Source of the DNA: Eledone cirrhosa
Lineage: Eukaryota
Assembly: GCA_964016885.1 (NCBI GenBank)
Contig: OZ024745.1
Coordinates: 75,702,001-75,766,000, forward strand
DNA length: 64,000 nt
Direction of reading: 5' to 3'
The notes under the pieces are model-generated. The model was not told where the DNA came from and searched no databases. It saw only the letters and a list, made by a program, of their open reading frames with translations. Positions 1 to 46,528 of this stretch are shown here, piece by piece. The position numbers and the translations under genes are program-made. How positions within the stretch are numbered: position 1 is the stretch's first letter; every line of letters begins with the position of its first letter.

Positions 1-183
1 TGGTAAGGAACCAGATGGAGCATAACGCACCAGAGTACTCAATACTAAGGGTAGTAGAGTAGTAGAGTGGGTAATAGGAAAATGTTTGATCCTAACGGCA
101 GAGCTCAAGCCGTTTCGACGGCTATTTCCAGTAATAGCAGTCGAAACGGCTTGAGCTCTGCCGTCGGGGTCAAACATTTTCCT
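1..183. mobile_element. Family A hammerhead-type element, fold-back copy (truncated by window edge)
   Basis: Matches copies at 3327, 22433, 44188, 46318, 56091, 57868. Inverted arms ~75-127 and ~134-183 contain GAAACGGC-ttgagctct-GCCGTC-ggggtc (hammerhead stem III, cleavage triplet, stem I). Ends in (TA)n. Confidence 0.8.
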
Positions 184-1264
184 ATATATATATATATATA
201 TATATATACGTCAATGTATGATATATATATGTTATATCATAAATATATATGTATCATACATTGACGTATATATATATATATACATACATACACACACATA
301 TATATATATATATGCATGGACACACGCATACTTGCATTTATGTGTGTGTATACATACATATAGGTATCTATATCTATGCATGTATCTAAGTATGTATGTT
401 TGGATTGATGAATATATGTGTATATATACATATATGTGGGTGTGCGTATGTTTGTTTGTGTGTGTGTATCTGTATATATATATATATATATATATATTAT
501 ATCATAAATCTAGATTGTTATACCCATAAAGTTAGCTGCTTAGTTCTAAAGTGTTAAGCATATAATTTTTATAACTAACATAAACGCATCAAATCAAATA
601 AAATTAACGGAAGTTTTTCAGATTGAATGTTTGAAGATATTAACAGCAATAGTAAAAGATACCAATAAAACTGCCTCAACCATTGCAAAAGTAATACCCC
701 ATAAGAACTTGTTACAATAGGAGTGGACATAAGATCTTTAACCATGAAAAGGAGAAGCAGAAATCATTGAAAACCTCAGGCGAAGCCAATGGGTCAATTT
801 GTGTAATGGAAACGGACAGTATAACATAGCATAAACATAAATAAGCAACAAATAAATATAGATGATAAAAATAAATGAAATAGATAAGATATAAAAAGAC
901 TAATACAATATATAAGAGTAAGATATGGTATAGAAATATTCAGGAACCCAATAAAAGCAAAACATCCAGATAAAGCGAATATCTAGAAAATCAGCGATTC
1001 ATTTTAGAAATCCAGCAGCACAAATGATGTTAAACGTTTATATTCACCCAAAGAAGCCTTTCAAAATGTAAAGTGAAAATAGTAAGAGAAATAATGTGCT
1101 TGGTTTGAATAAATAGAGAACTCTATTAAGACGGTAGTTTAAGCAACAACAAAAGCTACATCAAAATCATGCAGAAAAACACGTTCATAAAGAAAACACC
1201 CGAGGAGGTTTTTAAATATCGTCATGATCAAACATACAACTATATATATATATATATATATATA

Positions 1265-1790
1265 TAAACGGAAAAATGAAACGAAATTTCATTTCTCACT
1301 CTTAGTACGGCTGTTACTTAAATATAAGTATGTATACGTAGATACATATATGTATACAGACGTACAGTAGTATGTATATATATATACATACATGCACACA
1401 TATATATATGTATGTATGGATTCACTGAACATTTATTATAATGCTCGGTGTGTTTGTAAACAAACATCCCGAATTAAGCCGTACAGTGTCTAGCAACCAT
1501 CGTTGCTCATTTGTTCAACACTGACAAAGGAACGATGTACTAGTTTCAAGCTTATTAGCTATCGTCAGCAACTAGTACAGTGTTCCTTTGTCAGTGTTGA
1601 ACAAATGAGCAACGATGGTTGCTAGACACTGTACGGCTTAATTCGGGATGTTTGTTTACAAACACACCGAGCATTATAATAAATGTTCAGTGAATCCATA
1701 CGTACATATATATATGTGTGCATGTATGTATATATATACATACTACTGTACGTCTGTATACATATATATATGTACGTATACATACTTATA
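1265..1790. mobile_element. Family B hammerhead retrozyme-like element, fold-back copy
   Basis: About 220-bp inverted arms meeting at ~1572, flanked by (TA)n. Same terminus (TATA|aacggaaaaatgaaacg) as copies at 22661 and 37802. Confidence 0.85.
1532..1572 (-). ncRNA. Type I hammerhead ribozyme (family B, stem I clipped by inversion junction)
   Basis: Minus strand: gttg CTGACGA tagct aata agctt GAAAC ta GTA catcgt. Confidence 0.75.
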
Positions 1791-1842
1791 TATACATATA
1801 TATTTATATATATATATATATATATATTTATATATATATATT

Positions 1843-2659
1843 ATTAGGGTAAACATTGATGCAATTCAATTCAAGCACTCAACGTACTTTTTCCACATAG
1901 GAGTGACGGAGTAAATATCGAATAAGTAAAAGCGAAGTAGTTTCAGATGTTCAAGTCCTTTAATAATAATGCTGTGATATATATTTCAATGACGACACTG
2001 GCCACACTGTTCTGTGTGCGAGTGTCGTGACATCATCAGACAGCTTGTTACATAATAAGGTTGTTTCCGAGGCAATCCAAATTGAATCGACATGGGAACG
2101 GATGAAGTTCGTGCTTTTGGGTTTTTCATCCGTTCCCTTGTGAGTACCAATTCACCCCCACTGGTCTGCGCAAGCGCATGTCCGAAGGAAGTTGATCATT
2201 AGCACCGCAGATTTCAACGAAATTCGCTGTCAGTGGCCCACCTATGCCTTGCCAAAATTTACTGCTACCCATCGCTACTGTGGCAGTCAGCCGAAAGCCA
2301 GAGGGGATGGGAGGGTGTTAGTTTTTATAGGTCATAATACTACCTTTCACTAAGCGTTGACAGGAAGACTGACCATCAACTCATAAGGTAAAATAAACTT
2401 AATTCTAGGTACTATGGTTTTACATAGTAAGTTAAGAGTGAGAGTTGGGAATAAAAATTAAAATTAAAGGTTAAAATCCTAAATCAAATATCAGAGATTA
2501 TAAATTAAACAGTAAAGAATTCAAAAATTCTAAATTCAAAAATTTTTTTCAAGTGATAATTCGGATTAAGTAAAGATATACATTGAAGTGAGTAAATAAT
2601 ATGGAGAGAGATGTTTTAAAGGACTTGAACATCTGAAACTACTTCGCTTTTACTTATTC
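1843..2659. mobile_element. Family I hammerhead-bearing element with short inverted terminal arm
   Basis: (TA)n on both sides. 2616-2659 is the reverse complement of ~1920-1963. Hammerhead at 1971-2044. Confidence 0.65.
1971..2044 (-). ncRNA. Type I hammerhead ribozyme with long stem II
   Basis: Minus strand: GCTGT CTGATGA [tgtc-acgacact..cacac agaaca gtgtg..agtgtcgt-catt] GAAAT atat ATC ACAGC. Perfect 5-bp stem I and palindromic stem III. Confidence 0.8.
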
Positions 2660-2738
2660 TATATATATATATATATATATATATATATATAATATTATAT
2701 ATTATATATATATACATACATACAGACATATGTCTATA

Positions 2739-43912: not shown

Positions 43913-44187
43913 TATTATTATGCTTTGGGTATGAATTGAAGATACTTTACGGAATATTTGTGCAGTTTCTAGTTGCGTTATTTTCTATATGTTGTCTATA
44001 TTTATAAGTCCTAAGTTTAAGGTTATGATTATATCTGTGTAGGGCTTATTTATTATTTGTAAAGCACCTATTATTGTAGGTGTTGTTTCAATTTTTATCA
44101 TTCAGTTTATCTTTATAACTTTATATTTCGAATTATTATTGCTGTTGTTGTTGATGATATTATTATTTTATATATATATATATATAT

Positions 44188-44422
44188 AATGAAGGAAATG
44201 TGGTAAGGAACCAGGTGGACCATAACGCACCAAAGTACTCAATACTTAGGGTAGTAGAGTGGATAATAGGAACGAGTAGGACCCCGACGGCTGAGCTCAA
44301 GCCGTTTCGACGGCTAATTCTGGAGTAAAAAAAAAAATTTTTTTTAAGATTTTTTTTTTTTTAGTCCAGAATTAGCCGTCGAAACGGCTTGAGCTCAGCC
44401 GTCGGGGTCCTACTCGTTCCTA
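44188..44422. mobile_element. Family A fold-back copy
   Basis: Fixed terminus at left; arms 44266-44330 and 44358-44422 around an A/T spacer; (TA)n flanks. Confidence 0.9.
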
Positions 44423-45452
44423 TATATATATATATATATATATATATATATATATATATATATATATATATTTTTTTTTTTTTTTTTTTTTTTTGAGGGT
44501 TGAGTTTTCCTCTCACTTTAGTCTCTGTAAATAAACCCTTCTCTTTATATTGTATTGTTCTTCTATTTATTGTCCCTGAATCTTGTTTGCCCTTGTGGCC
44601 ATCATTACTATCGTCATTATTGCTATAATAATAATAGTGATAATGAAAATTATTATTATTATTATCATCATTATTGGGCCTAAATCAGAGACCATCATCA
44701 TCATCATCATCATCATTATCATTACTGCTGTTGTTATTGTTATTGTTTTCCGTGAAGAGAGAAAAAAGATTGAGCATTTGCTAATCTATAAAAAACAAGA
44801 TGTCATGGGGGTTAAATAAGTGGAAAAATCTTATGATCGATCTTCTGTGTAACCTCCTGACACACTGAGGCCTAAGCCGTATTCTCATTTATATTGATCG
44901 TTTTATTTTCTATTATATATATATATGTATGTATGTATATGTGTGTGCGTGTGTCATGTTACTTTTTTTTATTGTTGTTGTTTAATATCTCTAACTTCAA
45001 ATTTCAGTGGCGAAATTACTTTGTATAATGTTCAGAGATATCAGACAGAATGTGAAGGAAGATGTGGTACAGGTCAACAGATCGTTGCCAATACTTGGGA
45101 AAACATAAACAAATACTGAATTGATGTGACAGTTTTTTTTAGCTTCTTATTCATGCTTAATAACCAATAAAATACATTTATTTGTTAACCCTTTTGATAC
45201 CAAAACCGCCAGAAACCACCAATGGTTCTACGATACAAAACTATTTATTTTGAAGCGTCTATATTTAACTAAAAACTTTTCATTATAATTTTATGTAAGA
45301 AACTTTGTTATGCTCCAAATACCAACTTAGTAATGAGAAAGTCATTGATATTATTAAACCCCTTTGAACGTTTAATTATTGTTAAAACTATTTTAAAATC
45401 ATATAAAATGATGATATATATTAGTTTACTGCTTGAAATTATAGGAAAAGTG

Positions 45453-45488
45453 TCTTAACGTTTCAATCGTTAGTTCTTCATCAGAAAA
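45453..45488 (-). ncRNA. Degenerate hammerhead core (family L)
   Basis: Minus strand: tttt CTGATGA agaactaacgatt GAAAC GTT aaga. Homologous to 21241-21276. Confidence 0.4.
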
Positions 45489-46317
45489 AGAAATAGAAAG
45501 ATAGAGGAAACGACAAGTAAATGTTTATGGAAGGAAATCATGAGTGCATTAAGTCAGCCATATGAACAAATGAACAGCTGCTTGAACAAATGCCGTATGA
45601 GAAAAGTATTTCTAACTAGCACAAGGCTAGCAATCTAAGGGAAGGAGTACGTAGTAAAATCTTGTTAAAATGATACTCAAAGTTTCAAATTAACTTAAGC
45701 TGAATTTATACCATCTCTGCATCTGTTTTACTCGAGTTTCTACATTCCTACCTAAAAAAAAACACTAACACAAACTATGTTTTTAAACACACATTTTACT
45801 GGCCTCTACCATAGGGATTACTTAGTAAATGGACCTCGATTATGAGCACTCAAGTTATTCAATCAACAGTACAGCCTACTCGTAAAAGCGTGTGAATTAT
45901 CCACAAATACATGTACTCATAACATAATTTTCAGGAACATTAATCGCAATATTGACAAAGCTGACTCGTTAAAATTCCAGGTACAGTCCATCCGTCTTCC
46001 AGATAGTTTCCATCTACTTAATTTCTCCCACAATCCGAGGTATAGGAGAAAAAAAAACACTTACTCAAGATATCACATACTGCGATTGAACCTGAAGCTT
46101 TGTGTATTAAAAAAATAGCTACAACAGGACTAGAACTGTTTCATTCGTATGAATTGAGAAGCCTTTTAACTGTGCCCCCCCCCCCCCGTTTAATTCGGGA
46201 TCACACACACACACATATATATATGGTGCTATCAAGTTAGACATGCCCTGAGCAAAACCTATCAAAGTTATATATATATATATATATATATATATATATA
46301 TATATATATATATATAT

Positions 46318-46528
46318 AACGAAGGAAATGTGGTAAGGAACCAGGTGGACCATAACGCACCAAAGTACTCAATACTTAGGGTAGTAGAGTGGGTAATAGG
46401 AACGAGTAGGACCCCGACGGCTGAGCTCAAGCCGTTTCGACGGTTAATTCTGGACTAAAATCTATTTTAGTCCAGAATTAGCCGTCGAAACGGCTTGAGC
46501 TCAGCCGTCGGGGTCCTACTCGTTCCTA
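46318..46528. mobile_element. Family A fold-back copy
   Basis: Nearly identical to the 44188 copy; hairpin centre ctaaaa-tcta-ttttag; (TA)n flanks. Confidence 0.9.

Follow-up and report, generated by a model that had tools for sequence, protein, structure and literature searches.

The window analysed here is a stretch of 64,000 nucleotides (nt) of the Eledone cirrhosa genome (assembly GCA_964016885.1, contig OZ024745.1, positions 75,702,001 to 75,766,000, forward strand), with a G+C content of 34% and many (TA)n runs. Comparison of the window with itself recovers inverted repeats at the places collected in Table 1, and the ribozyme-family fold-backs among them are the 5'-truncated, ribozyme-bearing ends of Penelope-like elements (PLEs). 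Each family has two fixed ends, a short one (S) and a long one (L), and nearly every classifiable pair of arms combines one of each. Judged from the sequences, it is fairly probable that each pair represents two cDNAs begun at two fixed start sites of the reverse transcriptase (RT), on opposite cut strands of the target, and joined head-to-head.

Family A represents the 3' end of an autonomous PLE: from the same ends, its long copies continue into an open reading frame (ORF) that is 40-50% identical to the 830-amino-acid (aa) ORF of a second locus, L053, a link made for family A alone. The 830-aa ORF resembles clusters with HTH_animal, GIY-YIG and RVT_1 (scores of 0.96-0.99), and at least 2,337 candidates were obtained for its C-terminal part. 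A Pfam search (E 0.01) with the ORFs of L053 and L036 gave no match, the relative L063 gave only a sub-threshold GIY-YIG, and a PDB search with the 830-aa ORF was likewise without a match. At L053 (5583-8072) this ORF is uninterrupted and lies in a partial tandem, and the upstream terminal repeat resembles a window fold-back with a hammerhead-like core (59044-59316). The L036 ORF was considered as the parent of family A and rejected, since it belongs to a different PLE family; the element concerned (L036:6249-9492) is near-complete; its 296-bp pseudo-long terminal repeat (pLTR) is inverted and 99.7% identical, its hammerhead core is a variant one, and its ORF is frameshifted.

The terminal repeats carry a minimal type I hammerhead with a palindromic stem III, with features as in the passages of PMC4209133 on this type. 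Scanning the first 119 stretches (1.19 Mb) of an unbiased sample of 179 evenly spaced 10-kb stretches (1.79 Mb) of the 3.0-Gb genome, with a pattern that permits a 1-nt offset before stem II, recovered 79 intact hammerheads of this type, compared with two in reversed sequence, in about 20 families. The core is degenerate in families A and D and in the window's copy of H, and an Rfam search gave no hit at gathering thresholds and only microRNA-type hairpins, far below thresholds, by E-value. Families B, G and H consist of retrozyme-like, non-coding tandem monomers of 300-440 nt with the minimal type I hammerhead (G in 312-bp arrays), a layout not met in A, C, D, F0 and F2, and they are probably mobilised by PLEs. 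A solo minus copy of another hammerhead family (17928-18065, intact core at 18057) ends in (CT)n, not (TA)n.

The preliminary description listed twelve fold-backs in positions 1 to 46,528, and all are present where it placed them, each reading directly as a left arm in minus sense followed by a right arm in plus sense, with both RNA 3' ends abutting the flanks (tails-out). The orientation is firm where intact hammerhead cores are available (B at 22982, plus; E at 14232, plus; G at 16998, minus; C at 2033-2039, minus); for family H it was taken from the intact cores of the homologues L050 and L069, and for family A from a partial core together with the strand of the ORF in long copies, while family D (13478), with no homologue in the sample, is the weakest case. 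Beyond the window, the predicted non-random orientation was borne out by 111 tails-out and no tails-in ribozyme-family pairs in the 1.79-Mb sample after inspection (120 and 7 before). Pairs were counted when both arms belonged to the same family, on opposite strands and without a TA run between them; those split by at least 9 nt of TA were treated as neighbours and set aside (13 tails-in, 6 tails-out). Nine false tails-out matches were dropped because the family A reference from L036 was contaminated by other repeats, and the seven apparent tails-in pairs were all contaminated-reference, low-complexity or internal quasi-palindrome matches; the apparent tails-in pair at C2:21895968 is actually a solo copy adjoining another insertion across (TA)6. 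If the sample is representative, the density of about 60 pairs per Mb would correspond to roughly 1.8e5 pairs in the genome, not counting families that the reference set lacks.

The wording that all orientable fold-backs are tails-out holds for the ribozyme families and has to be restricted to them, because a fold-back of a tRNA-like short interspersed element (SINE) at 39970-40104 is tails-in. As a control, 220 segments of this SINE in the same sample include five tails-out and three tails-in close pairs. The element has an ATT-rich tail, with copies at window positions 47617-48297, 39970-40104 and 10215-10786 and at L093:212-362; its inverted pairs are occasional and occur in both orientations, one tails-out pair having a 9-nt target site duplication (TSD). 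Given their rarity and mixed orientation, SINE tails-out pairs were rejected as a second system. An assembly gap of 200 N (10344-10543) lies between two inverted SINE copies.

Table 1. Fold-backs and related features of the window, with arm strands and ends
Feature	Position	Arms or strand	Remarks
Family A fold-back	1..183	minus L arm 1-128 (truncated at the window edge), plus arm 127-183 ending at S	2-nt centre microhomology; 4 mismatches in 53
Family B fold-back	1266..1787	minus L arm 1266-1572 with ribozyme, plus S arm 1570-1787	3-nt microhomology; L arm further 5'
Family C fold-back	1843..2659	minus L arm 1843-2600, plus S arm 2616-2659	intact hammerhead core 2033-2039 (minus); nested by ~640 nt
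Solo family A copy, 1.08 kb	3326..4406	minus	L end, 3' untranslated region of autonomous PLE; between (TA)n runs; served as reference
Family D fold-back	13478..13665	minus L arm 13483-13600, 25-nt centre, plus S arm 13626-13665	oriented by partial core and tail motif only
Family E fold-back	13762..14409	minus L arm 13762-13991, plus S arm 13997-14409	intact hammerhead, core 14232 (plus); S arm ~210 nt further 5'; T/A runs in place of (TA)n on the left
Family G fold-back (312-bp tandem monomer)	16801..17342	minus arm 16801-17250 from L, plus arm 17251-17342	hammerhead 16998 (minus); plus arm ends at one-off internal site
Family A (A2 subfamily) fold-back	22211..22432	minus S arm 22211-22269, 30-nt centre, plus L arm 22300-22432	then a solo A copy at 22449-22567
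Family B fold-back	22662..23226	48-nt minus L stub, plus arm of more than one monomer ending at S	intact hammerhead 22982 (plus); monomer junction at 22858
Family H (tandem) fold-back	35680..36372	minus L arm 35680-36050, plus S arm 36057-36372	core degenerate in both arms
Family B fold-back	37803..38196	minus L arm 37803-38005, plus arm ending at S	internal repeats slipped in plus arm
SINE fold-back, tRNA-like (counter-example)	39970..40104	tails-in	oriented by SINE polarity; not a ribozyme family
Family A fold-back	44188..44421	minus L arm, plus S arm	30-nt A/T centre
Family A fold-back	46318..46527	minus L arm 46318-46459, plus S arm 46466-46527	6-nt centre
80-nt tail between S and L (example)	46318..46397	minus	holds RCTC...GAGYRC element common to families

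The S and L ends were scored in 80 sample pairs of eight non-tandem families, 31 pairs of other families being left out. Six of these pairs have an end at neither site, and 72 of the 74 classifiable ones combine S with L, leaving one L+L and one S+S; the same combination is found in 7/7 fully visible pairs of family G and in 11 clear pairs of families B, E and H. Independent choice of ends predicts S+L in at most half of the pairs (p about 1e-19, calculated by hand). In family A, where the claim that one arm ends at a family-specific fixed point is well supported, 31/33 long ends fall on one base. The other arm had been described as ending at an internal TA microhomology; this did not hold, as the second end is also a fixed family site, with 25 of 32 family A short ends at one base and 28 within 3 nt, three of the others being alignment stops at subfamily differences. 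Among 30 search loci of family A chosen for a full long arm, the window's own copy included, an inverted second arm is present in 26, and in 26/26 it has the S end. Of the proposed microhomology ends, ctcg|ATA at 17342 exists as an internal end and is a one-off, since family G normally ends near monomer position 286, and cca|ATA matched no arm in positions 1-46528.

The distance between S and L, the tail, is 60-100 nt in most families and about 25-55 nt in the tandem ones, and it is present at one end only in 72/74 pairs. GAGYRC occurs in 13/13 tails examined, compared with 1-4% in shuffles, the motif having first been noticed in those same tails, and a complementary RCTC lies 2-16 nt after S in 11/13, with a joint change to GCTC/GAGC in two families; predicted folding supports an RCTC/GAGY stem in only some tails. 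Every tail also holds 3-13 unused TA dinucleotides.

These unused sites bear on the earlier proposal that self-complementary (TA)n supplies equivalent primers on both cut strands, which would imply their use by two independent RNA-protein complexes. It is consistent with (TA)n on both flanks in 63 of the 80 pairs, with ends that coincide with a 1-5 nt TA-like match and with two pairs that are possibly chimeric. However, such independent dual priming predicts many S+S, L+L and cross-family joints, whereas one S+S and one L+L were seen among the 74, and the sample of about 20 families contains no clean cross-family joint (three candidates, none real), so this explanation appears very improbable. 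As TSD-flanked inverted PLEs are described in passages of PMC3846280 and every tail leaves TA sites unused, the self-complementarity of (TA)n is not needed; (TA)n is the preferred target, and its self-complementarity is probably a convenience and not the cause.

The two arms also differ in reach, the S arm extending further 5' than the L arm in 29 pairs compared with 6 at a threshold of at least 10 nt (p=1.2e-4), 22 compared with 2 at 20 nt or more, and 16 compared with 1 at 50 nt or more. The lead of the S arm is as large as 162 nt among the short pairs and exceeds 2 kb in L222 and L214, and at the kilobase scale both S-leading and L-leading pairs are found. One potential scenario is a snap-back, in which an L-primed cDNA folds on itself and is copied towards the target, the endonuclease then resolving it at S and later deletions altering the centre. 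It would yield tails-out orientation and S+L automatically, it accommodates the nested pairs at 1265 and 1843 in the window and at L083 as well as the frequent position of family A inner ends on the apex of a natural RNA hairpin, and endonuclease resolution was suggested for the tail in part of PMC8557442. However, an L-primed cDNA cannot give an S arm that reaches further 5', random deletion at the centre would favour neither arm (22 vs 2), and solo S-ended copies exist. Snap-back is therefore improbable as the general explanation; it may make a minority of the pairs, and as the main route it is refuted unless centre deletions preferentially remove the L arm.

The arms overlap as inverted duplications in 66 of 72 pairs and are non-overlapping in the remaining six. 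The centres of these 72 pairs comprise 20 with microhomology of at least 2 nt, 17 that are blunt or have 1 nt, 32 insertions and 3 unresolved cases, and some of the insertions were copied from the arms (13/13 nt in L056, 19/21 in L133; also L001, L017 and L030). In a second scenario, proposed for head-to-head PLE palindromes in passages of PMC3846280, an antisense transcript primes itself: its 3' end folds back, the RT extends it into sense DNA as far as L, and integration of the resulting hybrid is followed by copying back to S. The 5'-most sequence is then expected in the S arm, as in the 29 vs 6 pairs, non-overlapping arms are permitted, and the S arms share a 5' limit in several families (F4 -112/-117, F15 -152/-153). 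The loop and pairing required at the centre are at odds with 49 of the 72 centres, which have at most 1 nt of microhomology or an insertion; in addition, the L arm reaches further 5' in nine sample pairs (by at least 5 nt), in the window pair at 1843 and in the kilobase-long L210, L215, L220 and L223, solo L- and S-ended copies have the same ends as pairs, and target-primed reverse transcription in vitro used sense RNA, according to parts of PMC11167929. We regard self-priming on an antisense transcript as unlikely. Twin priming from two start sites is favoured because of the S+L rule, the S-leading arms, the non-overlapping arms and the blunt or filled centres.

With respect to the template, the arms of one event diverge by 6.5%, compared with 14.9% between events (38 of 44 family A pairs whose arms overlap sufficiently), and in family A arms common alleles were shared 116 vs 28 times and singletons 4 vs 30. 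Low divergence within events, shared alleles and the lack of cross-family joints indicate that both arms derive from one subfamily and diverged after insertion. A palindromic master copy, suggested by a systematic T/C difference between arms (L001-L030), was rejected, since the query had picked a rare allele, which the partner arm also has in 1/25, and the centres vary among copies. The ribozyme cleavage site is spanned by 142 of 160 arms, and three start there; uncleaved RNA was thus copied.

It could also be supposed that the hairpins are assembly or amplification artefacts, or element-independent repair of broken (TA)n hairpins, as the genome is TA-rich and contains a gap of N, and the window centre 13991/13997 is bridged by no listed record in four read runs. 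Mismatches between arms, strict polarity and the S+L rule argue against this. The mismatches, earlier noted for families C and G, are in fact general (1-13 in 11 of 12 window pairs), although the family G pair at 16801 has none in 94. Arm segments of family A sit in short fold-backs in 80 of 114 cases, far from the five tails-out and three tails-in pairs among the 220 SINE segments. Raw restriction-site-associated DNA sequencing (RAD-seq) reads of another study contain the S and L ends, both abutting (TA)n, two runs containing S in about 3,000 and 2,500 reads, together with opposite-strand joints such as 3366/3455 and 3379/3461. They also hold many distinct head-to-head joints of family E with short insertions, most of them from one or two read starts and thus possibly duplicates of few molecules. 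The hairpins that the preliminary description expected in raw reads are therefore confirmed as a class and not at single loci, and an artefact is hardly credible.

In the proposed mechanism, a PLE protein complex would cut both strands of a (TA)n target, and one cDNA would be primed from S and one from L of an uncleaved RNA, on opposite strands. The S-primed enzyme would run ahead and usually reach the 5' limit of the template, with the L-primed enzyme stopping earlier. The PLE RT is not known to have an RNase H; one RNA may serve both cDNAs without its removal, and the two cDNAs would be joined by end-joining or microhomology-mediated repair. The outline of twin priming given by the preliminary description is accordingly retained as probable on the strength of the S+L rule, the S-leading and non-overlapping arms and the end-joining-like centres, and its attribution to (TA)n as the cause is not.

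Several observations weigh against this interpretation. The windows for S and L (8-30 nt wide) were defined only after the ends were viewed, and TSDs are unreadable within (TA)n flanks. The inner ends lie within 4 nt of each other in 31/72 pairs, as could also result if a hairpin caused snap-back or if the centre was later deleted, and some centre insertions may be upstream sequence absent from the references. Furthermore, the inner ends of family A cluster at the apex of ribozyme stem II (63 of 80 at -23..-11), where solo copies begin as well; a template limit or an RT stop may be responsible. Antisense self-priming predicts S-leading arms as well, the arms of L181 and L205 look possibly chimeric, and one RNA and two RNAs of the same subfamily fit the arm data alike. 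In addition, start-site use in the in vitro system was equal on both strands in the relevant part of PMC11167929, so that strict S+L coupling is not explained by it.

A stronger version, which we offer tentatively and rate as somewhat less likely than its negation, is that PLEs transpose by obligate, asymmetric twin priming, with a dimer on the RCTC...GAGYRC tail stem making S and L cDNAs from the same uncleaved RNA. The S cDNA would start just 5' of the stem and the L cDNA 45-70 nt past it, on opposite target strands. If so, a single event, repeated some 180,000 times in this genome, would produce the tail, the inverted pLTR and the one-sided asymmetry common to all PLEs. The S+L rule, the S-leading asymmetry and the cross-family tail motif provide sharp predictions for the existing in vitro system. 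The counts imply on the order of 1e5 short palindromes in TA microsatellites, which annotators are likely to misfile as miniature inverted-repeat transposable elements (MITEs) or microRNA hairpins.

Several other features were observed in the window. An abundant TA-flanked fold-back family with two fixed ends is represented at 38246-38470 (164 hits in 47 sample loci); the part seen holds no ribozyme, and the family is hence without orientation. Repeat-derived fold-backs lie beside (TA)n at 60168-60524, 18206-18387, 21762-21905 and 3151-3311, with homologues at 1-12 other loci. Short inverted or tandem copies of the flanks surround long (TA)n at 20072-20419, which has no homologue in the 1.79-Mb sample, and at 21987-22135, and may reflect element-independent template switching. 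The family D fold-back (13478-13665) has (GA)n on its left and (CT)n on its right, so that its flanks are mutually inverted, which may mean that the RT added repeats or that the target was not TA. On the minus strand, 62597-64000 contains an open frame of at least 468 aa with RT motifs of non-LTR elements.

Compared with known systems, the fold-backs are a known object, and the dataset on their open mechanism is unusually large and clean. Our literature search found no twin-priming proposal for PLE inversions, many subscription papers and supplements being outside its reach, and the available part of PMC13282606, which counts octopus PLEs, leaves hammerheads and palindromes unmentioned. The tails-out layout is the norm for PLEs in the passages of PMC8557442 and PMC3846280: in the former an inverted 5'-truncated copy adjoins the 5' end, the tail is often at one end and Naiad PLEs target (TA)n, and in the latter head-to-head is the most frequent arrangement and inverted pLTR units have TSDs of 8-10 bp in ordinary targets. 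The same part of PMC8557442 names the formation of tandem or inverted insertions and the one-sided tail as open. The endonuclease-positive (EN+) units of these papers and the present ones share the head-to-head truncated copy, partial tandems, one-sided tail, pLTR hammerhead, (TA)n targeting and, in long copies, an RT with a C-terminal GIY-YIG-type region. Relative to those passages, the tails here are longer (mostly 60-100 nt compared with 30-40 bp), the copies are mostly stubs of 150-700 bp, and the S+L coupling and S-leading asymmetry are quantified, in about 20 families and an extrapolated 1.8e5 or so pairs.

The tandem monomers, type I hammerhead and non-coding nature of B, G and H resemble animal non-LTR retrozymes as portrayed in parts of PMC7229834 and 10.64898/2026.07.22.740005, the latter linking retrozymes to PLEs; unlike in those descriptions, these families follow the S+L inverted rule of the ORF-linked families. 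Twin or dual priming of L1, in the sections of PMC2837659 concerned, also involves two target-primed cDNAs, a tails-out inversion, an inner joint with variable microhomology or filler, and arms that are sometimes non-overlapping. However, the second L1 primer acts at variable internal sites and the arms are mostly non-overlapping, whereas here the second site is fixed and only 6/72 pairs are non-overlapping, so the proposed process works like twin priming without being the L1 form. The closest biochemical parallel is Poseidon of Anolis, for which the available text of PMC11167929 describes a purified PLE protein, predicted to be a dimer, that in vitro cleaves and extends both target strands of an AT-rich target, using uncleaved sense RNA as template and, without homology to the target, two RNA start sites whose interval equals the genomic tail. 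Two start sites bounding the tail, extension of both strands, uncleaved RNA and an AT-rich target are thus common to both systems; that text draws no link to inverted repeats (the word inverted occurs once, for a blocking group), and the link is drawn here.

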